From assembly GCF_055900595.2 (NCBI RefSeq), contig NZ_CM148325.1: DNA of 64,000 nt. One strand, written 5' to 3'. The translations under genes were made by a program, and so were the position numbers. Position 1 is the stretch's first letter, and every line of letters starts with the position of its first letter. The notes beneath the pieces are model-generated. The model made no database searches and was not told where the DNA came from. It saw nothing but the letters and a program-made list of their open reading frames with translations. Below, one piece after another: positions 11,529 to 45,293 of the stretch.

Positions 11529-12116
11529 TTACTTTTGAAAGGCTTTTTTTAAGCTGATTTTGGAAATCAGCTCTGTCAGTGAAAGGACCATTGTTGATCG
11601 CACAGCCTGTTGGTAACGCTGAATTTGCATTGCATACAAACTGGAGTCTGCGGGTTCAAACTGTGGCGGCGGTGGTAACGCCGCCACACAGTGCAGCTCA
11701 CCAAAGGGGCCAAGAATTTCGTCGTCGGTAAAGGCGTACTCATTGCCGTCGTGATTTAGTTCTTCACGCAATGCCATCAGCAGTTCCGCATCTTCGTATT
11801 CATGGCGGTTAATGACACCCAACCCGTAAATGAGTTTTAAACGCACAGAAAGATCGCCCAGCGGGCCATCGCCGTCGAGTAACGGTTCTACAGCATACTT
11901 CACCGCGTAATCGTCTTTGCGGAATACCTGAAGCACCAGAAGATTTACCGCCTCGGTCAAAAGCTCGACGGCGGTAATCAGAAAGCTTCGCACGGTTTTG
12001 CCAGCATTCAGACGCTCAAGCACACGGTTTTCAAAGGCCTGGGTTTGTTCCATTGTTGCCTGCATATCTGACAATCTGTTATTCGGGCGCAGGGAGTCCT
12101 GCGCCTGGTCCACCAT
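11529..12116 (-). CDS. mtlR: Mannitol operon repressor
   Basis: 195-aa ORF recognised as MtlR; directly downstream of mtlD. Confidence 0.92.
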   Translation of the reverse strand: MVDQAQDSLRPNNRLSDMQATMEQTQAFENRVLERLNAGKTVRSFLITAVELLTEAVNLLVLQVFRKDDYAVKYAVEPLLDGDGPLGDLSVRLKLIYGLGVINRHEYEDAELLMALREELNHDGNEYAFTDDEILGPFGELHCVAALPPPPQFEPADSSLYAMQIQRYQQAVRSTMVLSLTELISKISLKKAFQK

Positions 12117-13264
12117 TATTGCATTGCTTTATAAGCGGTTACCGCCTCGGATACAACCTCGCTGTTAGCATCAAGGCCGGAAATCTGCGCCAGTGCGGCT
12201 TGCGGGCCTTTGTCGGCAATCAGTGCTGCCAGTTCCTGAGCCTGCGGATCATCTTCACTGCGGAAGTGCATTGCAGCGGCAATACCTTCAATCAGGTTTT
12301 TATGTGGCAGACCATATTCCAGCGTTCCGAGCAGTGGCTTGATCAGACGGTCGCCAGCACTCAGTTTACGCAGCGGCTGACGGCCTACGCGCTCTACATC
12401 GTCTTTCAGATACGGGTTCTCAAAACGACCAAGGATTTTCTGGATGTACGCCGCATGTTTGTCCGCGTCAAAACCGTAACGCTTGATCAGTACAGCGCCA
12501 CTTTCTTCCATCGCCCCTTTTACTACCGCGCGGATTTTCTCGTCGAGAATTGCGTCACGAATGGTCTGATGACCTGCCAGTTTTCCGAGGTACGCGGTTA
12601 TAGCATGACCTGTATTCAGGGTGAAGAGTTTACGCTCAACAAATGCCATCAGGTTGTCGGTTAACTCCATGCCTGGGATGTTCGGCAGTGCACCTTTGAA
12701 TTGGGTTTTATCGACAATCCATTCGCTGAAGGTTTCGACTGTCACTTCCAGCGGATCGTTCGTTGCCGAAGCGGAAGGCGGTACGATGCGGTCAACGGCA
12801 GAGTCCACAAAGCCAACATGTTCTTCGACCCACGCTTTGGCGTCTTCCGGCAGGGCGTTCATCACATGGCCTTTCAGCTGCGTGGTGCCGCGTACCATGT
12901 TTTCACAGGCGATAATGTTCAGCGGGGATTCATTACCTTGTTCTTTACGTTTCACCAGCCCTTTGGCGATTGCCGGAGCAATACGTTCCAGCACAACCGG
13001 GCCCACGGCGGTAGTGACTAAATCAACCTGAGCAATCAGATCAACGACATCATCACCAATGCTGCTGACAGCATTGACGCCAGAAACGGTATCTACCTGC
13101 TCGGTTTCACCGACTACATGAACCTGATAGCTATGACGGGCATTCAGGGCATCAAGTACCACCTGATTGACATCGGCAAACGTCAGTTGGATACCTGCGT
13201 CTGCCAGCAGTTTACCGATAAAGCCACGACCGATATTACCTGCGCCAAAATGTAATGCTTTCAT
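12116..13264 (-). CDS. mtlD: Mannitol-1-phosphate 5-dehydrogenase
   Basis: ORF 12116..13408; start taken at [15 protein letters not shown] (NAD-binding GxGxxG), 382 aa; the upstream extension runs into REP sequence. Confidence 0.92.
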
Positions 13265-13299
13265 AGTATTAACCTTCATCAATGTTTTTACCCGAGAGG

Positions 13300-13760
<461 letters not shown>

Positions 13761-13762
13761 GA

Positions 13763-15676
13763 TTACTTACGACCTGCCAGCAGTTCCAGCACTTCATCCA
13801 CGCTGGTGGTGTGCGCCAGACGCTCGATGACGGACTCATCATCCAGTGCGTTGGTCAGGCTGGTGATAACCTGAATGTGCTCGTTGTTACGGGCAGCAAT
13901 ACCAATCACCAGACGGGCAATGTCATCTTCTTCTTCACCGAAGCGCACGCCTTCCGGGTACTGGCAGAACACCACGCCCGTTTTCAGTACGCGATCTTTC
14001 GCTTCAACCGTACCGTGCGGTACCGCGATGGACTCACCCAGATAAGTCGGGGTCAGTTTTTCACGATCCAGCATCGCCTGAACGTATTCCGGCTCAACGT
14101 AACCGCCTTTCACCAGCTGCTCGCCAGCAAAACGAATCGCTTCTTCTTTGGTGGCCGCTTTGCGACCGAGGAAGATGTTCTCCGCGCCTAGCTTGAACAG
14201 GTTAGCACTGGAATCGTCAAAGCTGTCTTTCAGACTGTCTTTCACTTTTACTTCGTTTTCAGTATGGCGCTGGGCAGCAACCAGACGTTCGGTCAGGCTG
14301 GTGTACAGGCCGCTGTCGAGGAAGTTGGTCAGCGAAATATGCTGTGCCTGCGGAACCTGGCGCATAGCGCGTTCGGTCAGGTCACGGTGAGTGATGACCA
14401 GGTCCACATCTGGCGGCAGGTTGTTGATCGCGCTGTTAGTAACAGAAATCTGCGACAGACCTGCATCCTGAATTTTCTTACGCAGCACACCTGCGCCCAT
14501 CGCACTGGAACCCATACCGGCATCACAGGCAACGATGATTTTACGGACGTGGCTCAGGTCGTTAGTCACATCGCCAGCAGACAGCGGAGATGCGCCTTTA
14601 GATTCAGCTTTCATGTCCTGCATACGACGCGTTGCTGCTTCAATGTCATCTTCTTCTTTCACTTTGCTGGTTTTCAGCAGAATGGCAGAGACAACGAAGG
14701 AGACTGCCATCGCCGCACACACACCCGCTATGTTAGCGAAGTAAGCACCTTTTGGTGTCATCGCCAGTACCGCAAGGATAGAGCCCGGAGATGCCGGAGA
14801 AACCAGACCACCGCCCAGGATAGTCAGCGTGAATACGCCAGTCATACCACCGAGGATAACGGCCAGGATCAGACGCGGATTCATCAGCACATACGGGAAG
14901 TAGATTTCGTGGATACCCCCCAGGAAGTGAATGATTGCCGCACCGCCCGCAGACTGTTTAGCGCTACCACGACCAAAGAACATGTACGCCAGCAGAACAC
15001 CCATACCCGGACCTGGGTTAGCTTCAATCAGGAAGAAGATGGATTTACCCAGTTCATGGGACTGCTGAATACCCAGCGGCGAGAAGATACCGTGGTTAAT
15101 GGCGTTGTTGAGGAACAGGATTTTCGCCGGTTCAACAAAGATAGACGCCAGCGGCAGCATGTCATGGACAACCATGAAGTTAACGCCCGCAGCCAGCATT
15201 TTGGACAGGGCTTCAACAATCGGGCCAATGCCGAGGAACGCCAGAATAGCGAGGATCATCCCGATGATGCCTGCGGAGAAGTTATTCACCAGCATCTCAA
15301 AACCGGATTTGATCTTACCGTCTACCCAGCGGTCGAAGTGCTTAATGCACCAGCCGCCCAGCGGACCTGCAATCATAGAACCGAGGAACATCGGCATATC
15401 TGCGCCGACGATAACGCCCATTGTAGTGATGGCACCGACTACGCCGCCACGTTCGCCGCCTACCAGCTTACCACCGGTATAACCGATCAGCAGTGGCAGG
15501 AGATAAGTGATCATCGGCCCGACCAGCTTCGCCAGCGTTTCGTTCGGTAACCACCCTGTTGGAATAAATAGCGCGGTGATGATACCCCACGCGATAAACG
15601 CGCCGATATTTGGCATCACCATGTTGCTGAGGAAACGACCAAAGCTTTGCACTTTGATCTTAATATCGGATGACAT
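13763..15676 (-). CDS. mtlA: PTS mannitol-specific EIICBA component
   Basis: 637-aa ORF recognised as MtlA. Confidence 0.95.
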   Translation of the reverse strand: MSSDIKIKVQSFGRFLSNMVMPNIGAFIAWGIITALFIPTGWLPNETLAKLVGPMITYLLPLLIGYTGGKLVGGERGGVVGAITTMGVIVGADMPMFLGSMIAGPLGGWCIKHFDRWVDGKIKSGFEMLVNNFSAGIIGMILAILAFLGIGPIVEALSKMLAAGVNFMVVHDMLPLASIFVEPAKILFLNNAINHGIFSPLGIQQSHELGKSIFFLIEANPGPGMGVLLAYMFFGRGSAKQSAGGAAIIHFLGGIHEIYFPYVLMNPRLILAVILGGMTGVFTLTILGGGLVSPASPGSILAVLAMTPKGAYFANIAGVCAAMAVSFVVSAILLKTSKVKEEDDIEAATRRMQDMKAESKGASPLSAGDVTNDLSHVRKIIVACDAGMGSSAMGAGVLRKKIQDAGLSQISVTNSAINNLPPDVDLVITHRDLTERAMRQVPQAQHISLTNFLDSGLYTSLTERLVAAQRHTENEVKVKDSLKDSFDDSSANLFKLGAENIFLGRKAATKEEAIRFAGEQLVKGGYVEPEYVQAMLDREKLTPTYLGESIAVPHGTVEAKDRVLKTGVVFCQYPEGVRFGEEEDDIARLVIGIAARNNEHIQVITSLTNALDDESVIERLAHTTSVDEVLELLAGRK

Positions 15677-15819
15677 AAAAACACCCCTTCTTATGTTTGC
15701 TGTCGCGCAGGCTGGAAGCCCGAGGTTTTTTGTTAATGTGGCGGCAGAGGTAGCCGGACCTTGTTGATAGTGCGAAATCTGGCACTGAATCGGTTAACTG
15801 TCCAGTCGACGGCTTTTTG

Positions 15820-15996
15820 TGTGATATCGGTCACATAAATATAGGGGGTAGAGAGGTAATTGACGTGATGTGCATCACAAAATACTTGTGTAAAAAAGCA
15901 ACAAGACGGCGATTTTCGCTAAAAATGGCATTTAAATGTGAGTAATGTCACATTTTTGTTTTGTTGGTTTGTTGAATCTTTGTGATCTGAATCACA
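15820..15996. promoter_or_regulatory. mtl promoter region with several CRP-type palindromes
   Basis: tgtgatatcggtcaca (15820..15835) and tgtgatctgaatcaca (15981..15996) both fit TGTGA-N6-TCACA; gtgatgtgcatcac (15865..15878) is a further perfect palindrome. Confidence 0.65.
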
Positions 15997-16212
15997 AGAT
16001 ATTTTCTTACGGCGTTCACCTGATGTGATCTGCAGCATGTTATGCCTTCGTCATAAAATCGTTATGTAACTAAGCAACTCATCACCTCTAAAAATTATTC
16101 TTTGGTGTTATGGCGAGAATCGCGAACCCGAATTATTGTCAAAATATCAGCCTGACTCCCTTCTGGCTGCCAGCCAAAAAACAACACCGATAAACGTGAA
16201 TCCGAGGCAGAT

Positions 16213-16575
16213 ATGTTTCTAAACTATTTCGCGTTGGGAGTGCTGATCTTCGTCTTTCTGGTGATTTTTTATGTAATCATCGCGATACATGACATCCCTT
16301 ATCTGATTGCCAAAAAGCGCAATCACCCCCATGCCGACGCTATTCATACGGCGGGCTGGGTGAGCCTGTTTACTCTGCATGTTATCTGGCCGTTCCTGTG
16401 GATCTGGGCGACGCTCTATCAACCGGAGCGTGGCTGGGGTATGCAGTCACATGTTGCGTCGCAGGAGAAAGCGACTGACCCGGAAATCGCCGCACTTTCT
16501 GACCGAATTTCCCGGCTGGAGCATCAACTCGCCGCCGAGAAAAAGACTGACTATTCCACGTTCCCGGAGATCTAA
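16213..16575 (+). CDS. yibI: DUF3302-family small inner-membrane protein
   Basis: 120-aa ORF with two hydrophobic helices and a C-terminal coiled-coil tail; paralog of the ORF at 26155..26478. Confidence 0.85.
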
Positions 16576-16577
16576 AT

Positions 16578-17714
16578 ATGGATCTATTGATTGTTTTAAC
16601 TTACGTGGCGCTGGCGTGGGCGGTCTTTAAAATCTTCCGCATTCCGGTAAATCAGTGGACGCTGGCGACGGCGGCGCTGGGAGGCGTGTTTCTGGTGAGT
16701 GGTTTGATTTTGTTGATGAACTACAACCACCCTTACACTTTTACCGCACAGAAAGCGGTGATTGCTATTCCCATCACGCCACAGGTGACGGGGATCGTGA
16801 CTGAAGTCACTGACAAGAATAATCAGCTCATTCAGAAGGGCGAGGTGCTTTTTAAGCTCGACCCGGTACGTTATCAGGCGCGAGTCGACAGACTTCAGGC
16901 TGACCTGATGACGGCGACGCATAATATAAAGACACTGCGCGCGCAGCTCACTGAAGCGCAAGCCAATACCACCCAGGTTTCAGCGGAGCGTGACCGCTTG
17001 TTTAAAAATTATCAACGTTACCTGAAAGGCAGCCAAGCGGCGGTAAATCCGTTCTCAGAACGTGATATCGACGATGCGCGGCAGAATTTTCTCGCGCAGG
17101 ATGCGCTGGTGAAAGGCTCGGTGGCGGAACAGGCGCAAATCCAGAGCCAGCTCGACAGTATGGTTAACGGTGAGCAGTCGCAGATTGTCAGCTTAAGGGC
17201 GCAGCTTACCGAAGCGAAATATAACCTTGAGCAGACCGTCATTCGCGCGCCGAGCAATGGCTACGTCACTCAGGTGCTGATCCGCCCAGGTACATACGCA
17301 GCTGCCTTGCCGTTGCGTCCGGTAATGGTTTTCATCCCTGAGCAAAAACGGCAAATTGTCGCCCAATTTCGGCAAAACTCGCTGTTACGTCTGAAACCCG
17401 GCGATGATGCGGAAGTGGTGTTTAACGCGCTACCTGGGCAGGTGTTCCACGGCAAACTGACTAGTATTTTACCTGTCGTGCCAGGCGGTTCGTATCAGGC
17501 GCAAGGGGTATTGCAATCATTAACGGTCGTGCCCGGCACGGACGGTGTGCTGGGAACCATTGAACTGGACCCTAACGATGATATCGATGCTTTACCCGAC
17601 GGCATCTACGCCCAGGTGGCAGTTTACTCCGACCATTTCAGCCATGTTTCGGTGATGCGGAAGGTGCTGCTAAGAATGACCAGTTGGATGCATTATCTTT
17701 ATTTGGATCATTGA
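16578..17714 (+). CDS. yibH: HlyD-family membrane-fusion (periplasmic adaptor) protein
   Basis: 378-aa ORF with N-terminal TM helix, coiled-coil region and beta-barrel domain; starts 2 bp after yibI; paralog of yiaV. Confidence 0.85.
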
Positions 17715-17784
17715 GACTTGTATCACCTGTGTTTTGCGCGAGCCTGAGCCATACTGATATTTTTCCTCGCACAAAGGACTCGGC

Positions 17785-18393
17785 ATGAAACTCGTCGGTA
17801 GCTACACCAGCCCGTTTGTACGCAAACTTTCTATTCTGTTGTTAGAAAAGGGCATAACTTTCGAATTTATTAATGAACTGCCCTATAACGCGGACAACGG
17901 CGTGGCGCAATTTAACCCGTTAGGGAAAGTGCCGGTGCTGGTGACTGAAGAGGGCGAATGTTGGTTTGATTCGCCGATCATCGCTGAATATATTGAATTA
18001 ATGAATGTCGCTCCGGCGATGTTGCCGCGCGATCCGCTGGAGTCGTTGCGAGTGCGCAAAATTGAGGCGCTGGCGGATGGCATTATGGATGCCGGGCTGG
18101 TATCGGTGCGTGAACAGGCACGTCCGGCGGCGCAGCAGTCTGAAGATGAATTGTTACGCCAGCGGGAGAAAATCAACCGCAGTCTGGATGTGCTGGAAGG
18201 ATATCTGGTCGATGGCACGCTCAAAACCGATACGGTCAATCTGGCGACTATCGCCATTGCCTGTGCCGTCGGATATCTCAATTTCCGCCGCGTTGCGCCA
18301 GGCTGGTGTGTCGACCGCCCACACTTAGTCAAACTGGTCGAAAACCTGTTTAGCCGCGAAAGTTTTGCTCGCACCGAACCGCCAAAGGCTTGA
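17785..18393 (+). CDS. yibF: Glutathione S-transferase family protein
   Basis: 202-aa ORF recognised as YibF. Confidence 0.85.
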
Positions 18394-18490
18394 TGCGCGA
18401 TATGTCCTCCTGACCCATCTCACGTTACAATCCGTGGTTATGTTAAACGCCCTTCTCCGTGTGAGAGGGCCTTGATCAACCAGGTTTCCT

Positions 18491-19882
18491 ATGACAACCG
18501 AAACGCGTTCCCTCTATAGTCAACTTCCGGCTATTGATCGCTTATTGCGCGATAGCTCCTTCCTTTCTTTGCGTGATACTTATGGTCACACCCGCGTGGT
18601 GGAATTGCTGCGTCAGATGCTTGACGAAGCGCGAGAAGTGATTCGTGACAACCAGACGCTACCCGCGTGGTGTGAAAACTGGGCGCAAGAAGTTGATGCC
18701 CGGTTGACGAAAGAGGCGCAAAGCGCGCTGCGTCCGGTGATCAACCTGACGGGAACCGTGCTGCATACCAACCTTGGGCGAGCTTTACAGGCGGAAGCCG
18801 CGGTGGAGGCTGTTGCGCAGGCTATGCGTTCGCCAGTAACCCTCGAATACGATCTGGATGACGCCGGACGCGGACATCGCGATCGGGCGCTGGCGCAGCT
18901 GCTGTGCCGTATTACGGGGGCGGAAGATGCCTGTATCGTTAATAACAATGCGGCGGCGGTCTTGTTGATGTTGGCGGCCATTGCCAGCGGGAAAGAGGTG
19001 GTGGTTTCTCGCGGCGAACTGGTGGAGATTGGCGGTGCGTTTCGTATTCCCGATGTTATGCGCCAGGCAGGCTGCACACTACACGAAGTGGGGACCACCA
19101 ACCGCACGCACACTAATGATTATCGTCAGGCGGTGAATGAAAATACCGCTCTGTTGATGAAAGTACATACCAGTAACTACAGCATTCAGGGGTTCACCAA
19201 AGCGATAGATGAAGCTGAACTGGTGGCGCTCGGCAAAGAGCTGGATGTTCCCGTAGTGACTGACTTAGGCAGCGGCTCGCTGGTCGATCTTAGCCAGTAC
19301 GGTTTGCCGAAAGAGCCAATGCCGCAGGAGTTGATTGCGGCGGGCGTCAGTCTGGTGAGCTTCTCCGGCGACAAGCTGTTAGGCGGACCGCAGGCAGGAA
19401 TTATTGTTGGTAAAAAAGAGATGATTGCCCGCCTGCAAAGCCATCCGCTGAAGCGTGTATTACGCGCGGATAAAATGACCCTCGCGGCGCTGGAAGCCAC
19501 GTTGCGTCTTTATTTACACCCTGAAGCTTTGAGTGAAAAATTACCGACTCTGCGTCTGCTTACCCGCAGCGCAGAGGTCATTCAAATCCAGGCACAACGT
19601 TTACAGGCCCCCCTTGCCGCACATTACGGCGCGGAGTTTGCGGTACAGGTTATGCCATGTCTTTCGCAGATTGGCAGTGGTTCGCTGCCGGTTGATCGCC
19701 TGCCGAGCGCGGCATTAACGTTTACACCCCATGATGGACGCGGTAGCCACCTTGAGTCATTAGCCGCCCGCTGGCGTGAATTACCAGTGCCGGTGATTGG
19801 TCGTATTTATGACGGACGATTGTGGCTGGATTTACGCTGCCTTGAAGATGAGCAACGGTTTTTGGAGATGTTGTTGAAATGA
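18491..19882 (+). CDS. selA: L-seryl-tRNA(Sec) selenium transferase (selenocysteine synthase)
   Basis: 463-aa ORF recognised as SelA; 4-bp ATGA overlap with selB. Confidence 0.95.
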
Positions 19883-21723
19883 TTATTGCGACTGCCGGAC
19901 ACGTTGACCACGGCAAAACAACCTTATTGCAGGCGATTACTGGCGTAAATGCCGACCGTCTGCCGGAAGAAAAAAAGCGCGGCATGACCATCGATCTCGG
20001 CTATGCCTACTGGCCGCAGCCGGATGGTCGTGTTCCGGGTTTTATCGACGTTCCCGGTCATGAAAAGTTTCTTTCCAACATGCTGGCGGGCGTCGGGGGT
20101 ATCGATCACGCGCTGTTGGTGGTGGCGTGCGATGACGGCGTGATGGCACAGACTCGTGAGCATCTGGCGATTTTGCAGCTGACCGGTAACCCGATGCTGA
20201 CAGTGGCGCTGACCAAAGCCGATCGCGTGGACGAAGCGCGTGTTGATGAGGTTGAACGCCAGGTAAAGGAGGTGCTGCGGGAATACGGTTTTGCTGAGGC
20301 AAAACTGTTTATCACCGCAGCAACCGAAGGCCGGGGAATTGATGCCCTGCGCGAGCATCTGCTTCAGTTACCAGAACGTGAACACGCCAGCCAACATAGC
20401 TTCCGCCTCGCTATCGACCGTGCTTTTACCGTAAAAGGTGCCGGGCTGGTCGTCACCGGTACGGCGTTAAGTGGGGAAGTGAAGGTAGGCGATTCACTCT
20501 GGCTGACTGGTGTAAATAAACCGATGCGCGTGCGTGCGCTGCATGCGCAAAATCAGCCAACAAATGCAGCTCATGCCGGGCAGCGTATTGCGCTTAACAT
20601 CGCGGGTGATGCGGAAAAAGAACAGATTAACCGTGGGGACTGGTTGCTTGCCGATGCGCCGCCGGAGCCGTTTACGCGGGTGATAGTCGAGCTTCAAACT
20701 CATACACCGTTGACCCAGTGGCAGCCGCTGCATATTCACCACGCCGCCAGCCACGTTACGGGACGCGTTTCGCTGCTGGAAGATAACCTTGCCGAGTTGG
20801 TGTTCGACACGCCGCTGTGGCTGGCAGATAACGATCGCTTAGTGCTACGCGATATCTCGGCCCGCAACACGCTGGCGGGGGCGCGCGTGGTGATGCTTAA
20901 CCCGCCGCGTCGCGGTAAACGTAAGCCGGAATATCTGCAATGGCTGGAGTCTCTTGCACAGGCGCAGAGCGATGCCGATGCGTTAGCTATTCATCTGGAA
21001 CGCGGAGCGGTTAACCTTGCTGATTTCGCTTGGGCGCGCCAGCTCAACGGCGAAGGGATGCGTGAACTGCTGCAGCAACCGGGCTATATTCAGGCCGGTT
21101 ACAGCTTGCTGAATGCACCGGTTGCCGCTCGTTGGCAGCGTAAAATTCTCGATACCCTGGCGACTTATCATGAGCAGCATCGCGATGAACCAGGTCCTGG
21201 GCGCGAGCGTCTGCGGCGCATGGCGTTGCCAATGGAAGATGAAGCGCTGGTGCTGTTGCTGATTGAAAAGATGCGCGAAAGCGGCGACATCCTCAGTCAT
21301 CACGGTTGGCTGCATCTGCCGGATCATAAAGCGGGCTTCAGCGAAGAGCAGCAGGCCATCTGGCAAAAAGCGGAGCCGCTGTTTGGTGACGAGCCGTGGT
21401 GGGTGCGTGACCTGGCAAAAGAGACGGGAACCGACGAGCAGGCAATGCGTTTGACGCTACGCCAGGCGGCGCAGCAGGGGATAATTACCGCGATCGTTAA
21501 AGATCGTTATTACCGTAACGATCGGATTGTCGAGTTTGCCAATATGATCCGCGATCTCGATCAGGAATGTGGTTCAACCTGCGCGGCGGATTTCCGCGAT
21601 CGCTTAGGCGTAGGCCGAAAGCTGGCAATTCAAATCCTGGAATATTTTGACCGCATTGGCTTTACGCGGCGTCGTGGAAATGATCATTTATTGCGCGACG
21701 CATTATTATTTCCGGAAAAATAG
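19879..21723 (+). CDS. selB: Selenocysteine-specific translation elongation factor
   Basis: 614-aa ORF with N-terminal GTPase motif [11 protein letters not shown]. Confidence 0.95.
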
Positions 21724-21783
21724 GGGAATGATTAATTCATAATAAATATGAATTAATACAAAGTTCTTATTAATGTTAAGGAA

Positions 21784-21816
21784 GCACGTTATTTGATGAA
21801 TGTAACGTGCTTTTTA
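21784..21816 (+). terminator. Intrinsic terminator downstream of selB
   Basis: 8-bp stem gcacgtta/taacgtgc, 11-nt loop, then TTTTT. Confidence 0.6.
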
Positions 21817-21912
21817 TTAAAAATATTTTAATAAACGGTAATGTTGATCATATTTTCAAATGAAAATCCTCAGTAAGCTGCCGGCCCTTTTTTACTCTTT
21901 CAGGAGTGTATT

Positions 21913-23032
21913 ATGGCAGCTTCAACCTTTTTTATTCCTTCCGTGAATGTTATCGGCGCTGATTCATTGAATGATGCAATGAATATGATGGCAGATTATG
22001 GATTTACCCGTACCTTAATTGTCACCGACAATATGTTAACGAAATTGGGTATGGCGGGTGATGTGCAAAAAGCACTGGAAGAACGCAATATTTTTAGCGT
22101 TATTTATGATGGCACCCAACCTAACCCCACCACGGAAAACGTCGCTGCAGGTTTGAAATTACTTAAAGAAAATAATTGCGATAGCGTGATTTCCTTAGGC
22201 GGTGGTTCTCCACACGACTGCGCAAAAGGTATTGCGCTGGTTGCAGCCAACGGCGGTGACATCCGCGATTATGAAGGCGTTGACCGCTCTGCAAAACCGC
22301 AGTTGCCGATGATCGCCATCAACACCACGGCGGGTACGGCATCAGAAATGACCCGTTTTTGCATCATCACCGATGAAGCACGTCACTCCGCTGCTTTCTG
22401 TCAATGACTCCTCGCTGATGATCGGTATGCCGAAGTCACTGACCGCTGCAACGGGTATGGATGCCTTAACGCACGCTATCGAAGCGTATGTGTCTATTGC
22501 CGCCACGCCGATCACCGACGCTTGCGCACTGAAAGCGGTGACTATGATTGCCGAAAACCTGCCCTTAGCCGTTGAAGATGGCAGCAATGAGAAAGCGCGC
22601 GAAGCAATGGCTTACGCTCAGTTCCTCGCGGGTATGGCGTTCAACAATGCGTCTCTGGGTTATGTTCATGCGATGGCGCACCAGTTAGGTGGTTTCTACA
22701 ATCTGCCGCACGGTGTATGTAACGCCGTTCTGCTGCCGCACGTTCAGGTATTCAACAGTAAAGTCGCTGCTGCACGTTTGCGTGACTGCGCTGCCGCGAT
22801 GGGTGTTAACGTGACAGGTAAAAACGACGCGGAAGGTGCAGAAGCCTGCATCAATGCCATCCGTGAACTGGCGAAGAAAGTGAATATCCCGGCAGGCTTG
22901 CGTGACCTGAACGTGAAAGAAGAAGATTTCGCGGTACTTGCGACCAATGCCCTGAAAGATGCCTGCGGCTTTACTAACCCGATTCAGGCAACTCACGAAG
23001 AAATTGTGGCGATTTATCGCGCGGCGATGTAA
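21913..23032 (+). pseudogene. yiaY: Iron-containing alcohol dehydrogenase YiaY, split by a frameshift near 22375-22405
   Basis: Two ORFs in different frames (21913..22407, 164 aa; 22373..23032, 219 aa) together cover one Fe-ADH; about 10 residues between ...CIITDEARH and [32 protein letters not shown] are missing relative to family members such as FucO. Confidence 0.7.
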
Positions 23033-23045
23033 TCATCATTCCCAC

Positions 23046-23075
23046 AATGGCTGGCTAATTGTCAGCCATTTTTTC
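23046..23075 (+). terminator. Weak hairpin plus T-run downstream of yiaY
   Basis: atggctg ... cagccat followed by ttttt. Confidence 0.4.
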
Positions 23076-23232
23076 AACTCTCTCAAAATTTGCGATTTTT
23101 GAGAGAGTTTTAGTTATCTCTGTAATCCTTGCCCGTAAATTCGTGATAGCCGTCGTAAAGCTATCACCAGCTGGCGAAGATTTCGCCAGTCACGTCTACC
23201 CTTGTTATACCTCACACCGCAAGGAGACGATC

Positions 23233-24771
23233 ATGACCAATAATCCCCCTTCAGCACAGATTAAGCCCGGCGAGTATGGTTTCCCCCTCAAGTTAAAAGC
23301 CCGCTACGACAACTTTATTGGCGGCGAATGGGTAGCCCCTGCCGACGGCGAGTATTACCAGAACCTGACGCCGGTGACCGGGCAGCTACTGTGCGAAGTG
23401 GCGTCTTCGGGCAAACGAGACATCGATCTGGCGCTGGATGCTGCGCATAAAGTGAAAGATAAATGGGCGCATACTTCGGTGCAGGATCGCGCGGCGATTC
23501 TGTTTAAGATTGCCGATCGAATGGAGCAGAACCTCGAACTTTTAGCGACGGCTGAAACCTGGGATAACGGCAAACCCATTCGCGAAACCAGTGCTGCTGA
23601 TGTACCGCTGGCGATTGACCACTTCCGCTATTTCGCCTCGTGTATTCGGGCGCAGGAAGGCGGTATTAGCGAAGTGGATAGCGAAACCGTGGCTTATCAC
23701 TTCCACGAACCGTTAGGCGTGGTGGGGCAGATTATCCCGTGGAACTTCCCGCTGTTGATGGCGAGCTGGAAAATGGCTCCCGCGCTGGCGGCGGGCAACT
23801 GTGTGGTGCTGAAACCCGCACGTCTTACCCCGCTTTCTGTACTGCTGCTAATGGAAATCGTTGGTGATTTACTGCCGCCGGGCGTGGTGAACGTGGTTAA
23901 CGGTGCTGGTGGGGAAATTGGCGAATATCTGGCGACCTCGAAACGCATCGCTAAAGTGGCGTTTACCGGCTCAACGGAAGTGGGCCAACAAATTATGCAA
24001 TACGCTACGCAAAACATTATTCCGGTGACGCTGGAGCTGGGCGGCAAATCGCCAAATATCTTCTTTGCTGATGTGATGGATGAAGAAGATGCCTTTTTCG
24101 ATAAAGCGCTGGAAGGCTTTGCACTGTTTGCCTTTAACCAGGGCGAAGTTTGCACCTGTCCAAGCCGTGCTTTAGTGCAGGAGTCTATCTACGAACGCTT
24201 TATGGAACGCGCCATCCGCCGTGTCGAAAGCATTCGTAGCGGTAACCCGCTCGACAGCGTGACGCAAATGGGCGCGCAGGTTTCTCACGGGCAATTGGAA
24301 ACCATCCTTAACTACATTGATATCGGTAAAAAAGAGGGCGCAGACGTGCTCACCGGTGGGCGGCGCAAGCTGCTGGAAGGCGAACTGAAAGACGGCTACT
24401 ACCTCGAACCGACGATTCTGTTTGGTCAGAACAATATGCGCGTGTTCCAGGAAGAAATTTTTGGTCCGGTGCTGGCGGTAACCACCTTCAAAACGATGGA
24501 TGAGGCGCTGGAGCTGGCGAACGACACGCAATATGGTCTGGGGGCTGGTGTCTGGAGCCGCAACGGTAATCTGGCCTATAAGATGGGGCGCGGCATTCAG
24601 GCCGGGCGAGTGTGGACCAACTGTTATCACGCTTACCCGGCACATGCGGCGTTTGGTGGCTATAAGCAGTCGGGTATCGGGCGCGAAACCCATAAGATGA
24701 TGCTTGAGCATTACCAGCAAACCAAGTGCCTGCTGGTGAGCTACTCAGATAAACCGTTGGGGCTGTTCTGA
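23233..24771 (+). CDS. aldB: Aldehyde dehydrogenase B
   Basis: ORF 23059..24771; start taken at [17 protein letters not shown] (512 aa) with SD aaggagacg upstream. Confidence 0.93.
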
Positions 24772-24783
24772 TGTAAGAAGCTG

Positions 24784-24830
24784 GTCGCATCGGGTATTCA
24801 TTGCCTGATGCGACGCTTTCGCGTTTTACC
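24784..24830 (+). terminator. REP-like hairpin and T-rich tail downstream of aldB
   Basis: gtcgcatc ... gatgcgac inverted repeat followed by gctttcgcgtttt. Confidence 0.55.
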
Positions 24831-25000
24831 AATTCAAATGTCTACGTCTTGAATGACTGAATATTGATTGAACTTAATTACGAGTCTCCTCGCATCTTTT
24901 CAACAAGTTACTGCACACCGTTATTCTTCTTCCGAACGGCATTCCTGAGTCAACTTTATCTCCCTGACGGCCCATATAAATCGCGCTATCGTGATTGTTA

Positions 25001-25031
25001 TTGCTAAGTGTGTGTGTATCGTGTGTATAAT
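25001..25031 (+). promoter_or_regulatory. Putative sigma70 promoter of hicAB with direct repeats
   Basis: -35 ttgcta (25001..25006) and -10 tataat (25026..25031); the direct repeat gtgtgtat x2 overlaps the -10 region. Confidence 0.5.
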
Positions 25032-25048
25032 CATGGAAGGGCAGGGAT

Positions 25049-25234
25049 GTGAAAAGTGCAGACGTGATCGCCATCCTGAAGCAGCATGGCTGGGAACATA
25101 TTCGAACCCGTGGTAGTCATCATCAGTTCCGCCACCCTGTCCATCCGGGTCTGGTGACGGTTCCGCACCCTAAAAAAGATATTAAGCCCGGTACGCTGGC
25201 GCAAATTGGGCGTCAGGCTGGTTTAACATTTTAA
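25049..25234 (+). CDS. hicA: HicA-family toxin (61 aa)
   Basis: GTG start; small basic protein with RGSHH and PHP-KDIKPGTL-I-RQAGL motifs; 16 bp upstream of the antitoxin gene. Confidence 0.8.
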   Translation: MKSADVIAILKQHGWEHIRTRGSHHQFRHPVHPGLVTVPHPKKDIKPGTLAQIGRQAGLTF

Positions 25235-25250
25235 AATTTCAGGAGGCAAT

Positions 25251-25661
25251 ATGTTTTATCCCGCCTATATCCACAGTGATCCTGACGGCAGCGCCAGCGG
25301 TTTTTTCCCTGATGTTCCAGGCTGTTATTTTGCTGGTGATACGCTGGACAACGCTTTCCAGGATGCGCGAAGTGCACTGGTCGCGCACTTCGAAACCTTA
25401 TGCGAGATGAATGAAGAGTTGCCGCTTCCAGGCTCTGTGGAAACACATCTGGTCCAGCGTGCGCAGGACTTTATTGGCGGGCAATGGTTGCTGGTGGATA
25501 TCAATATGAATCAGTTCGAAGGTCGGGCTGAACGTATCAATATTACGATGCCGAAAAGATTACTGAACAAGATTGATACCTACGTGCGCAATAACCCAGA
25601 CTACGCCAACAGAAGTGCGTTTCTGGCGGAAGCTGCCCGGCGTGTATTGCCGGGCGTTTAA
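25251..25661 (+). CDS. hicB: HicB-family antitoxin with C-terminal ribbon-helix-helix DNA-binding domain (136 aa)
   Basis: Strong SD aggagg 7 nt upstream; C-terminal RHH-like segment NRSAFLAEAARRVL. Confidence 0.8.
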   Translation: MFYPAYIHSDPDGSASGFFPDVPGCYFAGDTLDNAFQDARSALVAHFETLCEMNEELPLPGSVETHLVQRAQDFIGGQWLLVDINMNQFEGRAERINITMPKRLLNKIDTYVRNNPDYANRSAFLAEAARRVLPGV

Positions 25662-26041
25662 TCTCGCGTTTCGATGGTGAGCGGGCGGACCAGGCTGTAC
25701 AGCCACAGACCAAAACAAGCGATGGTGCCAATCACCACGGTGAGGAACACACTGACTGACAGGCCTGCAAGCAATCCCGCAGGCAGGGCCAGCAGGCCGT
25801 GGATCACGGTGTCGTTCCATCTCACCTGATCGTAGCCAAACATGCCTAAAACGCCGCAAACCAGACCGTAAATCACCATTGGTGTTCCGAGGCCAATCAG
25901 CAATAAACGGTAGATAATTGAAGGTTTAATACGCTTTATCTGTACTGTGGATGTTTTACTGGGGTTATTCATTAGTTTGGTCAATAGTTCCATTATTTCA
26001 ATATGATAAACCTCGACCTGTTGAAAAGCCAGGTAGCACAC
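25658..26041 (-). CDS. Small hydrophobic membrane protein of unknown function (about 111-127 aa)
   Basis: ORF with two or three predicted TM helices; start uncertain (GTG at 26041 or ATG at 25993); 3' end overlaps the hicB stop by 4 bp. Confidence 0.45.
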   Translation of the reverse strand: MCYLAFQQVEVYHIEIMELLTKLMNNPSKTSTVQIKRIKPSIIYRLLLIGLGTPMVIYGLVCGVLGMFGYDQVRWNDTVIHGLLALPAGLLAGLSVSVFLTVVIGTIACFGLWLYSLVRPLTIETRD

Positions 26042-26154
26042 TTCAGAAAGTATATAAAAAACAATATGTCGTTATATAAATAAGGAAATTGCACTGCATC
26101 ATGGCATTTCATAATATGCGTTAATTGTTCTTTTTTATATTCTCTGAGGGAAAT

Positions 26155-26478
26155 ATGTTCCTGGACTATTTTGCACTGGGAGTGCTTATTTTTGTATTTC
26201 TGGTGATATTCTATGGGATTATTATTTTACATGATATTCCCTACCTGATTGCTAAAAAACGTAATCATCCTCATGCCGACGCCATTCATGTTGCTGGTTG
26301 GGTGAGTCTTTTTACGCTGCATGTTATCTGGCCATTTTTGTGGATTTGGGCCACGCTTTACCGCCCGGAGCGGGGATGGGGAATGCAAAACCATGACTCC
26401 TCCGTTGTGCAACTACAACAGCGTATTGCCGGGCTGGAGAAACAGCTCGCCGACATCAAATCCTCTTCTGCCGAGTAA
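26155..26478 (+). CDS. yiaW: DUF3302-family small inner-membrane protein
   Basis: ORF 26125..26478; start taken at MFLDYFALG with SD gaggg upstream (107 aa); paralog of yibI. Confidence 0.85.
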
Positions 26479-26483
26479 TACTT

Positions 26484-27620
26484 ATGGATTTACTGATTAT
26501 TTTGACCTATGTGGCTTTCGCATGGGCAATGTTTAAGATCTTCAAAATTCCTGTAAATAAATGGACCATTCCCACCGCGGCCCTGGGTGGCATATTTATT
26601 GTCAGCGGTCTAATTCTGTTAATGAACTATAACCATCCGTATACCTTTAAAGCGCAAAAAGCGGTTATTTCTATTCCTGTTGTCCCGCAGGTGACAGGCG
26701 TGGTGATCGAAGTGACGGACAAGAAAAATACGCTGATTAAAAAAGGTGAGGTGCTATTTCGACTGGACCCGACGCGTTATCAGGCGCGGGTGGATCGGCT
26801 GATGGCGGATATCGTTACCGCAGAACATAAACAGCGGGCGTTGGGCGCAGAGTTAGATGAGATGGCGGCGAATACTCAGCAGGCAAAGGCCACGCGGGAT
26901 AAATTCGCTAAAGAGTACCAGCGTTACGCACGCGGCAGCCAGGCGAAAGTAAACCCGTTTTCAGAACGCGATATTGATGTGGCGCGGCAAAATTATCTGG
27001 CGCAGGAAGCCTCCGTAAAGTCATCGGCGGCGGAACAAAAACAGATCCAGAGCCAGCTGGATAGCCTGGTGTTGGGTGAACATTCTCAAATCGCCAGCCT
27101 GAAAGCGCAGCTCGCGGAAGCAAAATATAACCTTGAGCAGACGATAGTGCGTGCGCCGAGCGATGGTTATGTGACCCAAGTGCTGATTCGTCCGGGTACC
27201 TATGCCGCATCGCTGCCGCTACGTCCTGTGATGGTGTTTATACCCGATCAGAAACGACAAATTGTGGCGCAGTTCCGTCAGAACTCCTTGCTGCGACTGG
27301 CTCCCGGCGATGATGCGGAAGTGGTGTTTAATGCTCTGCCAGGTAAGGTATTCAGCGGTAAGCTGGCAGCCATTAGCCCAGCTGTTCCCGGCGGAGCTTA
27401 TCAGTCGACCGGCACCTTACAGACGTTAAACACAGCACCGGGTTCAGATGGCGTTATCGCGACCATTGAACTGGATGAGCACACTGAGTTGAGCGCTTTA
27501 CCAGACGGTATTTACGCCCAGGTGGCGGTTTACTCTGATCATTTCAGCCATGTCTCGGTGATGCGCAAAGTGCTGTTACGCATGACCAGTTGGGTGCATT
27601 ACCTTTATCTCGATCATTAA
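26484..27620 (+). CDS. yiaV: HlyD-family membrane-fusion protein
   Basis: 378-aa ORF; paralog of yibH; starts 5 bp after yiaW. Confidence 0.85.
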
Positions 27621-28591
27621 TCTTCGCTTTCCGCCGCTTGTTCAGGCCGCAGTTGCTGCGACTGAGCAAGCTGGTGGCGAATTTCACGCAGCATTTCATC
27701 CAGCACATACTGGACCCGCCAGGGCTGGTATTCCCGTTTACGGAAGATAGCCACCAGATCCAGCCACCATTCATACGGTTGCTGAAAGCAGGGCACCAGC
27801 GTGCCGTCTTGCAGGTCGCTCTGCACACTTTTGTCTGGCGCAAACACAATCCCCAGGTGATTTCGTGCCAGCTCCAGCGCCGATTGCGTGTTGTCGCAAA
27901 CGTAATTTCCCTTCACGCGATAATCCCGCACCTCTTTACTCCCGGCGACGTTGAAGCGCCAGATATTCGCGTCGTCGATCATCATCGAGTCGATCAAAAT
28001 ACAGGAGTGATGTTCGAGTTCGTCAGGACGGCTAATGGGATGTTTCTCAAGATAGCGCTGACTGGCATAAGCGGTTACGGCATATTGCGTAATAAAACTG
28101 GCAACCAGCGATTCATCTTTTGGTGGAGCATAGCTGATTAAAACATCACAATCATCGGGAAATTCGACACCTTCATAAAAGGCATTACGCTCAAGATTGC
28201 AGGTTTTTAGCGATAAGGTGATATCACCGATATCTTTAATTTTATCGATAACATGTTTGGATAAATAGGTAATTATGCCGGTTGGGGCGTAGATGGTGAC
28301 CCGACCACGTTTCTCATGCTTATAATCTGCAATAAAATTATTAAGTTGCTCGTTTCTGTCCAGCATGTCGTTGATGTACGGTAACAGCGCGGTACCAAAA
28401 GGTGTGAGCATCAGCTGCCGGGTGGTTCGGTCAAAGACTTTTAAACCTACTTTTGATTCAAAATCAGCAAGATATTTGCTGACGTTGGCCTGTGCGAATC
28501 CAAGTACAGTCGCGGCATGGCTGATATTTTCACTGGCAGCGATTACCGAGATAATTTTTAACTCCCGGTACTTAAGTTGTAATTTTGTCAT
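27617..28591 (-). CDS. yiaU: LysR-family transcriptional regulator
   Basis: 324-aa ORF with N-terminal HTH; convergent with yiaV (4-bp overlap), divergent from yiaT. Confidence 0.85.
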
Positions 28592-29469: not shown

Positions 29470-29600
29470 TCGGTGCGGCTGGCCTACGCTCTCGCACTGA
29501 CCTTCAGGCTTGATAAGACGCGTTAAGCGTCGCATCAGGCAATGTGCACCCTACGTTGGATGCGGCGCGAGCGCCTTATCCAACCTACGGATGGCAATGC
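29470..29600. repeat. REP element pair between yiaT and the GH127 gene
   Basis: gcctacgctctcgcactgaccttcaggcttgataagacgcgttaagcgtcgcatcaggca ... ggatgcggcgcgagcgccttatccaacctacgg. Confidence 0.7.
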
Positions 29601-38738: not shown

Positions 38739-40016
38739 TTAATTAATCCATTTCAACGGGAGGATGATGAGATCGGGAATAAAAACAAATAAGGCTAATA
38801 AGGAATATAAAACCAGGACGTAAGGGAAAACGCCTCTGACTGCATCATCGAATTTGAGTTTAGCCACCCCTGAAATAACGTTAAGCACATTACCGATAGG
38901 CGGTGTAATTAAGCCGATTGAGCAGTTGATGATAAACATGACACCGAAATAAATCGGATCGATTCCTGCCTCTTTAACTAAAGGCATTAATACCGGGGTA
39001 AGAATTAACACCGTCGGCGTTAAATCCATGACCATGCCGACAATCAGGATAGCCACCATAATGACGATAAACAGCAGACGCGGTGAATCGACCAACGGTT
39101 GCAGTAAATCAGAAACCATCATCGGCAATTCAGCAATGGTAATCAGCCAGGCAGAAACTTGTGCCGAGGCCACCAGAAACATCACCACTGAGGTCGTTTT
39201 CGCTGCGCCAATAAGTACATGCCAAAGTGTGGCGAAGGTCATTTCACGGTAAATAACTGTGGCGACAAACAACGCATAGAAAGCAGCAACGGCCCCGGCT
39301 TCGGTAGGGGTAAACAGACCGGAGCGAAAGCCGCCAATAATAATGACCGGAAGAAATAGCGCCCAGATACCGGAAACAAAAGAGTGCCAGATTTCTCGTT
39401 TCGTTGCTTTTTGCTGACGGGGTAAATTAAGACGACTGGCCTGCCACCACCATGTGAGCATCAGCGTTGCGCCCATCATAATGCCTGGGGCAATGCCCGC
39501 CATAAACAACTTACTGATGGATAATCCGCTGGAAACACCGAAGATAATAAACGGAATGGAAGGGGGAATAATTGGCGCGATAATCCCGCCAGAGGCAATC
39601 AGCCCCGCAGCACGGTTGACCGGGTAGTTAGCGCTGCGCATCATCGGCACCAGTAGCGCGGCAACGGCGGCGGTATCCGCAACAGCAGAACCGGAAAGGC
39701 TCGCCATAATCATAGCCGCCAGCACGCCGACGTAGCCCAACCCGCCTGGTTTATGCCCCACCAGTTTCATCGGCAGGTCAACAATGCGTTTTGATAAGCC
39801 GCCCGCATTCATGATTTCACCCGCCAGTACAAAGAACGGAATCGCCAGCAGGGAGAAGCTGTCAGCACCGTTTACCAGCGTTTGCGCCATGATCTGGACA
39901 TCAAACATATCCAGCCAGAACATAAGCGCCGCCCCGCACAACAGTAGCGACCAGGCAATAGGCAAACCGATAGCAATGCCACCCAACAGGCAGCCCAGAA
40001 AAATCAGCACAGCCAT
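38739..40016 (-). CDS. yiaN: TRAP transporter large permease (DctM family)
   Basis: 425-aa polytopic membrane ORF. Confidence 0.9.
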   Translation of the reverse strand: MAVLIFLGCLLGGIAIGLPIAWSLLLCGAALMFWLDMFDVQIMAQTLVNGADSFSLLAIPFFVLAGEIMNAGGLSKRIVDLPMKLVGHKPGGLGYVGVLAAMIMASLSGSAVADTAAVAALLVPMMRSANYPVNRAAGLIASGGIIAPIIPPSIPFIIFGVSSGLSISKLFMAGIAPGIMMGATLMLTWWWQASRLNLPRQQKATKREIWHSFVSGIWALFLPVIIIGGFRSGLFTPTEAGAVAAFYALFVATVIYREMTFATLWHVLIGAAKTTSVVMFLVASAQVSAWLITIAELPMMVSDLLQPLVDSPRLLFIVIMVAILIVGMVMDLTPTVLILTPVLMPLVKEAGIDPIYFGVMFIINCSIGLITPPIGNVLNVISGVAKLKFDDAVRGVFPYVLVLYSLLALFVFIPDLIILPLKWIN

Positions 40017-40018
40017 GA

Positions 40019-40492
40019 TTAAGCTCCTTGCGGTGGCGGCGTTAGAGAATTGCTACGCGTGATGAGTTGATATAAAAGGCGCAGCTCAAAGAATGCGATA
40101 ACGAGGCTGGTGGGTAGACAAGCGGCATACATCAGGCCGATGGGCAAGCCGAGGATCGGTGAATAATCGCTCCAGTCCTGAATTGTTTTTAGCGTTGCGC
40201 CCCAGGCCAGTGCGCCACAAATAAATAATATTAAGGAGTGGGTAACCAGAGCGACTCGTCGCTGCCACGCGGGGGAGAGTTTCTCCACCAGAAAGGTAAC
40301 CTGAACGTGGGCGTTATCCATAAAAGCCACAATCGCGCCAATAAAGGTTAACCAGACAAATAAATAACGCGACAATTCATCTACAGATAAAATACTTGTC
40401 TGAAAACCATATCTTAAAATAATGTTTATAAACACAATACAGGAAAGTACGGCGAGATTAATCGCCAGTATTGCTTCAAGTATTTTTTTCAT
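40019..40492 (-). CDS. yiaM: TRAP transporter small permease (DctQ family)
   Basis: 157-aa membrane ORF. Confidence 0.88.
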
Positions 40493-40609
40493 AGCTATTC
40501 CTTGAGGCTATGTTTGTCATAATTCAAGTTGCATGTGCAGCAACCTGAATTATTAATATAGTTAGAGCAATAACATTACCCAGGCGTTCTGGCGTAGACG
40601 ATTATTCGA

Positions 40610-41080
<471 letters not shown>

Positions 41081-41088
41081 TTATCTCC

Positions 41089-42087
41089 TTATAACGCCTG
41101 GATTTTTGCCCATACGCTGTCATCAACGGTAATACCGTTACGGCGGTTTTCTGCCAGCAGGGTGGTAAATTCGTGGCCGGGTAAGCGGATGGCCTGGTTT
41201 TCGTCAGCGCGTTCAGCGGTAGTAACGTAATCCATGATGCGTTGCAGCTTGGCATCGCGGGTGGGGCCGTCGATCAATTTATCCACTTCGATGGCGATAA
41301 AGATTTGCGAAACACCGTATTCGTCGCTGTTATCCTGGGTGACTTCAGCAACTGACGCGCCGTCAGAAAGAAGAGTAGCGATCATATCCAATACGATCGA
41401 CATACCGGAACCTTTCCAATAGCCCATCGGCAAAATTCGACGATTTTTCTCGATAACGCCAGGTTCTTTGGTCAAATTGCCCTCATCATCAAAGCCACCA
41501 TCGACCGGGAGCTGACGGCCCGCCAGGCGGTTAACTTCTAACATGCCATAAGAGAACATCGACATCGACATATCGACCATGGTGATTGGGGTAGAAGGAA
41601 TGGCGACGATCAGCGGGTTGGTGCCGATGCGACACTCTTTTGCGCCCCACGGCGGCATTACGGCGATGGAGTTGGTCCAGCAAATGCCAATATAGCCTTT
41701 TTCCGCCGCCTGCCAGCCGTAGCTGCCGCCGCGCATCCAGTGGTTGGCATTACGTAGAGCCACCAGACCAATACCGTGATCGGCAGCCAGTTCGATGGCG
41801 CGATCCATCATCTTTTTCGCTGTCAGGTTACCGATCGAACGCTGGGCGTCCCACTGTTCAATTGCGCCGAGGCTGGTTATACGTTTGGGTTGGGCATCAG
41901 GAATGATATCGCCGTTTTCCAGTTGTTGAATGAAACGAGGGAAACGGTTGACGCCGTGAGAATAAACGCCGGATTCGGTGGTGCGGGCGAACATTTCGGC
42001 ACAGGCATCAGCCGTTTCGCTGTCAACGCCGCGTGAAATTAAGACTCGATTAAAGGCTGCTTTTAACTGCTCAAATGTCACTTTCAT
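41089..42087 (-). CDS. yiaK: 2,3-diketo-L-gulonate reductase
   Basis: 332-aa ORF recognised as YiaK; first gene of the yiaK-sgbE operon. Confidence 0.9.
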
Positions 42088-42287
42088 CCCTGGCTTCCTT
42101 GTTTTTTTGATCGCTTTTTTGGCTTAAAATTTCAATATGCGAAATCTGATTTCAAATATATCGATCGCTTTTTAACAAAGCAATCTGATTGATGAATTTC
42201 AAAAAACTTAAAAATCAAGTGGTTATAAATTATCTGTCGAGATCGTGAACTACGACACACTTTGCGCTACCATCAGGACGCGACAAA

Positions 42288-43136
42288 ATGGGGAAAGAAG
42301 TGATGGGAAAAAAAGAGAACGAGATGGCGCAGGAAAAAGAGCGTCCAGCCGGAAGCCAGAGTCTGTTTCGCGGGTTGATGCTGATTGAGATTTTGAGCAA
42401 CTATCCAAACGGTTGTCCGTTGGCGCATCTTTCGGAGCTGGCTGGTTTAAATAAGAGTACCGTCCATCGCTTATTGCAGGGATTACAATCCTGCGGCTAT
42501 GTGACCACCGCGCCCGCCGCAGGGAGTTACCGCCTGACTACCAAATTTATTGCCGTCGGGCAGAAGGCGCTGTCTTCGCTGAATATCATTCATATCGCCG
42601 CTCCGCATCTTGAGGCACTGAACATCGCCACTGGTGAAACCATTAACTTCTCCAGCCGCGAAGACGATCACGCTATTTTGATTTATAAGCTGGAACCCAC
42701 GACCGGGATGCTGCGAACCCGAGCTTATATAGGCCAGCATATGCCGCTCTACTGTTCCGCAATGGGCAAGATCTACATGGCGTTTGGTCACCCGGACTAC
42801 GTGAAGTCATACTGGGAAAGCCATCAGCATGAGATCCAGCCGTTAACCCGCAATACCATTACCGAGCTGCCCGCGATGTTCGACGAACTGGCGCACATTC
42901 GTGAAAGCGGAGCGGCGATGGACAGAGAAGAAAACGAACTCGGCGTCTCCTGTATTGCTGTTCCGGTGTTTGATATTCATGGGCGGGTGCCGTACGCCGT
43001 GTCGATTTCTCTTTCGACATCACGTCTGAAACAGGTGGGGGAGAAAAATCTCCTGAAACCACTGCGTGAAACCGCGCAGGCTATTTCTAATGAACTGGGA
43101 TTTACTGTCAGGGACGACCAGGGCGCGATCACATAA
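42288..43136 (+). CDS. yiaJ: IclR-family repressor of the yiaK-sgbE operon
   Basis: 282-aa ORF with N-terminal HTH; divergent from yiaK. Confidence 0.9.
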   Translation: MGKEVMGKKENEMAQEKERPAGSQSLFRGLMLIEILSNYPNGCPLAHLSELAGLNKSTVHRLLQGLQSCGYVTTAPAAGSYRLTTKFIAVGQKALSSLNIIHIAAPHLEALNIATGETINFSSREDDHAILIYKLEPTTGMLRTRAYIGQHMPLYCSAMGKIYMAFGHPDYVKSYWESHQHEIQPLTRNTITELPAMFDELAHIRESGAAMDREENELGVSCIAVPVFDIHGRVPYAVSISLSTSRLKQVGEKNLLKPLRETAQAISNELGFTVRDDQGAIT

Positions 43137-43237
43137 CGCTCTGGACAAGTGCCAAAACTTTAACATTTCCTTCGTTGGATCAAAGCAGTAGAGACGCGCT
43201 CTCTGGCACTCTGCTGTTTTAGTGCAAAGGAGTGATC

Positions 43238-43711: not shown

Positions 43712-43759
43712 AACGTTTTTCCGGCGTTTTTTAACGCAGGAATAGTGCGCTTTGTTTAT

Positions 43760-43860
43760 GCCGGATGCGGCTTAAACGCCTTATCCGGCCTACAAATTAT
43801 TCCAAATTCAATATATTGCAGAAATGATGTAGGCCTGATAAGCGTAGCGCATCAGGCAAT
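43760..43860. repeat. REP element pair between ysaA and avtA
   Basis: gccggatgcggcttaaacgccttatccggcctaca ... tgtaggcctgataagcgtagcgcatcaggca. Confidence 0.8.
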
Positions 43861-43862
43861 TT

Positions 43863-45116: not shown

Positions 45117-45254
45117 AGCGGGATATCTGTCGAACTCTGTAGCAAGGAAGGTAACAATAACGCTACATTTGCTGGGGTGCAAATCGCTCTGTTGAAGTGG
45201 GAGCGGTGCTTTATCCTGCAACGCTGATTAGGGCTGACATTTTATCCTGGTTGG

Positions 45255-45287: not shown

Positions 45288-45293
45288 GAAACG

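Follow-up and report, generated by a model that had tools for sequence, protein, structure and literature searches.

Does the junction between yibH and yibF in this DNA represent the unoccupied state of an Rhs site, and, if so, was the site never filled or was it emptied? The window, by which we mean the whole stretch of 64,000 nucleotides that was analyzed, carries mtlA (13763 to 15676, minus strand), yibI (16213 to 16575, plus strand), yibH (16578 to 17714, plus strand), yibF (17785 to 18393, plus strand), selA (18491 to 19882), and selB (19879 to 21723). Genes were identified by the RefSeq annotation at matching E. coli loci and by Pfam, and mtlA, selA, and selB were taken from the open reading frame (ORF) list. 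YibH is an HlyD-family membrane-fusion protein and its gene forms the left flank of the site. YibF is glutathione S-transferase-like, with GST_N and GST_C domains, and its gene forms the right flank; both genes are also in the ORF list. To the left of the site lies yibI (DUF3302, Pfam E = 8e-41; RefSeq annotation of matching loci), the first gene of the yibI-yibH pair. The stop codon of yibH is a TGA at 17712 to 17714. By the ORF list, the spacer is 17715 to 17784, exactly 70 bp, with both genes on one strand. The first-pass annotation had put about 70 bp between the two genes, and the ORF ends at 17714 and 17785 make that figure exact.

The same annotation had referred to a K-12 map on which rhsA, yibA, yibJ, and yibG lie between yibH and yibF, and these genes are indeed there in NC_000913.3. 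In that K-12 MG1655 sequence, yibF (3761347 to 3761955) and yibH (3770243 to 3771379) are 8,287 bp apart, and the interval holds rhsA, yibA, yibJ, yibG, yibS, yibW, yibV, and yibU. The alignment that had been proposed as a check thus finds the two genes apart in K-12 and not adjacent. Homology between the window and K-12, as seen by blastn, runs through window position 17715 (K-12 3770242), 1 bp past the yibH stop. It restarts at window position 17748 (K-12 3761992), 37 bp before the yibF start codon. The segment specific to K-12 is exactly 8,249 bp long (NC_000913.3 3761993 to 3770241, 48.8% GC), and its place in the window is occupied by 32 bp at 17716 to 17747 (ACTTGTATCACCTGTGTTTTGCGCGAGCCTGA). 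The two alleles differ by more than a clean insertion, with 8,249 bp in K-12 in place of 32 bp. Presence or absence of Rhs relative to K-12 is a deterministic comparison, and chance is not an issue.

We found no Rhs sequence in the window. K-12 RhsA had no tblastn match in the whole 64 kb at an E value of ≤1e-3, and YibA, YibG, and YibV had no tblastn match in it either. When the full 8,287-bp K-12 interval was compared with the window by blastn, only the 37-bp yibF leader matched. An occupied locus has an rhs core ORF, encoding a YD-repeat protein of about 1,400 amino acids, between yibF and yibH, and it has an immunity gene, orphan tips, and H-repeat remnants (yibA, yibG, yibV, yibJ, and others). 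The window has neither. It has the marks of an empty allele, with yibH and yibF contiguous on one strand, the 32-bp segment in the spacer, and an allele that is common to outgroups. The observation of a short junction is confirmed, and its interpretation as an unoccupied Rhs insertion site is supported by these comparisons; the window carries the Rhs-free allele of an Rhs site.

We then compared the breakpoints in five occupied genomes (K-12, 10R, O157 Z1626, O111 7-54, and 97-3250). The left breakpoint was identical in all five, with ...TCATTGAG directly followed by GGGGAGGGG... (also written TGAG/GGGGAGGGG...). The right breakpoint was likewise the same in five of five, with ...CCCATCACCAG directly followed by GCCATACTG... 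The 32-bp segment was missing from K-12, 10R, O157, O111, and 97-3250 and was found only in Rhs-free genomes. Between the breakpoints, the islands vary in toxin tips, immunity genes, and orphan fragments. The distance from the yibH stop to the yibF start is 6,534 bp in O157, 7,257 bp in 10R, and 8,287 bp in K-12 and O111.

The search for short direct repeats at the junction, which the first-pass annotation had also proposed, gave no such signature. A repeat scan of the window spacer (17715 to 17784) returned nothing notable, direct or inverted. There was no target-site duplication or terminal repeat at the K-12 breakpoints, where the longest string shared across the junctions was 3 to 5 nt, and a blastn-short comparison of the K-12 island ends gave only chance 7- to 10-mers. 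We rejected a transposon or insertion sequence (IS) target or excision scar, as the breakpoints lack both a target-site duplication and terminal inverted repeats. An integrase attachment site was also rejected, with no tRNA in the window and no direct repeats at the island ends. The tRNA scan covered all 64 kb, and no integrase is annotated in the K-12, 10R, O157, or O111 island. The locus resembles integrase or transposase islands and IS insertions in being a multikilobase accessory region that is present or absent at a fixed site. It differs from them in that 32 bp of host sequence are replaced here, not duplicated.

How common is the empty state? We searched 5,426 complete E. coli genomes, counting a junction only when the query gave one contiguous match. 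The yibH-yibF junction of the window was present in 1,521 to 1,523 genomes (28% of the 5,425 matching). The K-12 yibH/island (left) junction was present in 3,723 genomes and the island/yibF (right) junction in 3,748, each about 69%. About 150 genomes (3%) belonged to neither junction class. One of these is QL57EC, in which an IS1-mediated deletion took out everything from mtlR to yibH together with the 5' end of yibF. The site is occupied in K-12, O157:H7, O111:H8, 97-3250, and 10R, among others, and empty in, for example, IAI39, CE10, 042, and an ST131 strain; we take the latter four to belong to phylogroups F, F, D, and B2, respectively. These four, and some 1,520 complete genomes in all, share the 70-bp spacer of the window. 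Among five empty genomes compared, the spacer was the same; it was identical to that of the window base for base in IAI39, ST-131, and R32_14_1F and had two differences in 042. As a separate matter, the annotation of IAI39 treats yibF as a pseudogene interrupted by an internal stop. For E. coli W, B, and Crooks, occupancy at b3592-b3596 has been reported (PMC3032704). The survey of 5,426 finished genomes confirms that the Rhs locus is polymorphic, with two states, fixed breakpoints, and an empty allele that is ancestral. The empty site is an ordinary strain difference, common and already documented.

To determine which state came first, we scanned one genome per GTDB species with a YibF query, which yielded 55 loci. 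In many outgroups yibH lies immediately upstream of yibF, with a spacer of 61 to 92 bp (174 bp in C. koseri). Within Escherichia, the two genes are adjacent in E. whittamii, Escherichia sp. E1V33, and the divergent "E. coli" GTDB species SCPM-O-B-8794 and E69. Outside Escherichia, they are adjacent in Citrobacter amalonaticus, Kluyvera cryocrescens, Lelliottia, Huaxiibacter, and Pluralibacter, among others. RhsA gave no tblastn match to any of the 55 loci. The 32-bp segment is nearly identical in other Escherichia lineages and is alignable in C. amalonaticus. Adjacency without Rhs in the outgroups, together with the conserved 32 bp, points to the empty yibH-yibF allele as the ancestral one and to the Rhs island as derived. 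Other Enterobacteriaceae (E. whittamii, C. amalonaticus, K. cryocrescens, Lelliottia, and Huaxiibacter) share the gene order mtlA, yibI, yibH, yibF, selA with the window, and the spacer sequence diverges outside Escherichia and Citrobacter.

Feulner and colleagues reportedly found in 1990 that a short sequence stands in for an 8,249-bp RhsA element in a strain without RhsA. The yibF/yibH site is the rhs "position 10" of Jackson et al. (2009, PMC2935791). In that work, position 10 was inferred to have arisen by duplication of position 5, after the split from a pathogenic group that lacks the clade I expansion (PMC2935791). The ancestral empty state matches their account (Jackson et al. 2009, PMC2935791). 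Relative to the RhsA element of K-12 at position 10, the window has the chromosomal site and the flanking genes but none of the 8,249 bp from rhsA to yibU, and it has the 32-bp ancestral spacer instead.

Two further observations concern the yibI-yibH pair. In many genera, including Enterobacter, Kosakonia, Buttiauxella, and Mangrovibacter, mtlA directly adjoins yibF with no yibI-yibH between them, which suggests that the pair is itself an indel across the Enterobacteriaceae. The window also carries a paralogous pair, yiaW-yiaV; yiaV (26484 to 27620) is about 74% identical to yibH in nucleotide sequence.

The 32 bp also bear on the idea that a resident Rhs island was deleted or excised from the chromosome of this strain, leaving a scar. 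Rhs loci are prone to recombination, and losses do occur here in other genomes, such as the IS1-mediated mtl-yibH loss in QL57EC. However, occupied genomes do not have the 32 bp (17716 to 17747), so no deletion could bring them back. In addition, these 32 bp have an orthologous counterpart in the spacers of other Escherichia species and of C. amalonaticus, and the junction is marked by no remnant of Rhs, no IS, and no target-site duplication or terminal repeat. Deletion or excision is effectively refuted by the conserved 32 bp, and we give it virtually no probability. The same segment speaks to a possible assembly artifact, in which a repeated Rhs element was collapsed or skipped. Rhs cores are multicopy repeats of more than 3 kb that often break short-read assemblies, and the contigs of E. 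albertii and MOD1-EC7003 break off 0.8 kb and 3 kb, respectively, upstream of yibF, with no Rhs found in either. Nevertheless, a collapse would not yield a specific 32-bp ancestral spacer, and about 1,500 genomes that were finished independently carry the identical spacer. The chance that the junction is an artifact is negligible.

The window therefore very probably carries the ancestral Rhs-free allele, and the island was probably gained once, in another lineage, in a replacement of 32 bp. We suggest that a single event put the Rhs island at this site in the lineage of K-12, O157, O111, and most other E. coli, and that its arrival would have replaced 32 bp of the spacer. The arriving island would have consisted of an rhs core gene with its toxin tip, an immunity gene, orphan tips, and H-repeat remnants. 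Internal remodeling may have followed, and homologous recombination in the flanks may have carried the island into other backgrounds. One ancient acquisition followed by displacement of C-terminal tips would be expected to leave the breakpoints fixed and the contents variable. Jackson et al. (2009, PMC2935791) put forward this sequence of acquisition and tip displacement as their model.

The flanking alleles show how far this history can be followed in the window. Two haplogroups of yibH, about 5% diverged from each other, exist in E. coli, and empty as well as occupied genomes occur in each. The first holds the window, 10R, and R32_14_1F, and the second holds K-12, O157, O111, IAI39, 042, and ST131. 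The yibH of the window is 98.0% identical to that of 10R, which is occupied, and about 95% identical to those of IAI39, ST131, and 042, which are empty; these Rhs-free strains thus differ from the window by about 5% in yibH. In yibF, the same strains are 97.4 to 99.8% identical. Because both yibH haplogroups are mixed for occupancy, homologous recombination has probably transferred either the island or the empty allele from one background to another. We considered flank haplotypes as a clue to gain or loss and rejected them, as occupied and empty genomes do not have distinct ones. The yibH alleles are independent of occupancy, so the window is compatible both with a lineage that was never occupied and with one that re-acquired the empty allele.

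These haplogroups are the argument for a secondary loss, in which an Rhs-bearing ancestor recombined with Rhs-free DNA, with crossovers in yibH and in yibF/selA, and the empty junction was restored. Each haplogroup mixes empty and occupied genomes, recombination has uncoupled the flanks from occupancy, and the closest yibH and yibF alleles to the window among those compared are from the occupied 10R (98.0% and 99.5%). However, import of the island into the 10R background explains this pattern equally well. The genomes nearest to the window at the junction and over 40 to 52 kb (E200086, AST85, and Z0117EC0005) are all empty, and so is R32_14_1F, which is near the window at the junction. We therefore consider a secondary loss unlikely, and the sequence present is the ancestral allele in either case.

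The right boundary, at 17747/17748, raises a question of its own. The yibF-proximal leader (17748 to 17784, plus strand, 37 bp) is kept in every allele compared, whether empty, Rhs occupied, E. albertii, or MOD1-EC7003. In E. albertii NBRC 107761, a MOSC/YiiM-like gene (Pfam; positions 134 to 781 of locus L016) lies directly upstream of yibF. In Escherichia sp. MOD1-EC7003, a non-rhs island with fragments of ISAs1 type (DDE_Tnp_1_assoc) lies upstream of yibF (positions 1 to 2962 of locus L015). In both, homology with the window is lost exactly at 17748. Three cargos are thus found at 17747/17748: the Rhs island in most E. coli, the non-rhs island in MOD1-EC7003, and the MOSC/YiiM-like gene in E. 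albertii. The E. albertii gene had no match by megablast in complete E. coli genomes, and we rejected it, at that sensitivity, as a third E. coli allele.

It is conceivable that unrelated cargo has landed repeatedly, and with nucleotide precision, at 17747/17748 in Escherichia, and we regard this as quite improbable. If true, it could point either to a site-specific mechanism that has gone unrecognized or to strong selective pressure to keep a yibF core promoter starting with GCCATACTGAT. A more mundane reading is suggested by similarity to K-12 beyond the 17748 boundary, which extends for 147 bp in MOD1-EC7003 and 16 bp in E. albertii. MOD1-EC7003 has 184 bp in common with the yibF-proximal end of the K-12 interval, made up of the 37-bp leader and 147 bp on the island side. 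Because the similarity among these three runs 16 to 147 bp past the boundary, K-12, MOD1-EC7003, and E. albertii may have inherited one divergent spacer allele by descent, a reading that we hold with low confidence. If so, the island might have entered E. coli on a recombined segment and not by transposition, which we again suggest with low confidence. The last ~22 bp of the K-12 segment (CTGCCCTTTTTCCCATCACCAG) resemble the yibH-yibF spacers of Huaxiibacter, Lelliottia, UBA7338, and E. albertii, so the true boundary of the foreign DNA may sit slightly inside the 8,249 bp.

The leader itself may contribute to yibF expression. It opens with the motif GCCATACTGAT and contains an AAGGA ribosome-binding site. 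The motif (G)CCATACTGAT at 17748, also written (G)CCATACT, is conserved across genera ahead of yibF. We infer that the leader and this motif may belong to the core promoter or 5' untranslated region of yibF. A promoter scan of 17400 to 18100 placed no promoter within the spacer, and the sole promoter-like site was inside yibF. The terminator scan of the same interval predicted none. The RNA fold of 17680 to 17790 had a z-score of 0.48, with no unusual structure, and an Rfam search of the whole window had no hit in the yibH-yibF spacer. With no predicted terminator and with yibF 70 bp downstream on the same strand, read-through from yibIH and cotranscription of yibF are plausible in the empty allele. 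In the K-12 allele, yibF is divergent from rhsA.

The window is 96 to 98% identical to E. coli loci and 87 to 94.5% identical to loci of other Escherichia species, and on nucleotide identity it is assigned to E. coli sensu stricto. The closest complete RefSeq E. coli genomes are about 97 to 97.5% identical over 8000 to 28000 and 98.9% identical over 40000 to 52000. No complete genome is closer, which suggests that the source lineage is poorly represented among finished genomes.

We also noted several features of the window away from the junction. The gene yiaY (L-threonine dehydrogenase, 21913 to 23029) is disrupted, and its ORF stops at 22407. The frameshift results from the loss of 32 bp between two 9-bp direct repeats (GCACGTCAC) at about 22378 to 22386; yiaY is intact here in K-12, 10R, and E. 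whittamii. The mtlD-mtlA intergenic region (13332 to 13752) contains 3.1 tandem copies of a 135-bp unit with a 96% match, one copy more than in K-12 and the other loci compared. We take this unit to be REP/BIME-like. Rfam hits at gathering level, none of them near the junction, were the cspA thermoregulator (63011 to 63438, minus strand), the sok antitoxin RNA (62577 to 62728, plus strand), naRNA4 (29507 to 29585, minus strand), and the ES036 small RNA (43794 to 43836, plus strand).

For the organism, the empty site has little relevance beyond correct annotation. The RhsA C terminus is growth inhibitory and is neutralized by YibA (Vlazny and Hill 1995, as cited in PMC3150448), and a strain with the empty site is without this toxin and immunity pair. 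The rhs core is a substrate for unequal crossing-over between rhsA and rhsB (PMC2935791). An empty-site strain thus also has one fewer copy of the repeated rhs core, the sequence behind rearrangements such as the classic duplication between rhsA and rhsB. In this respect the window strain fits with Rhs-poor E. coli, like the B2, D, and F reference strains ST131, 042, and IAI39.
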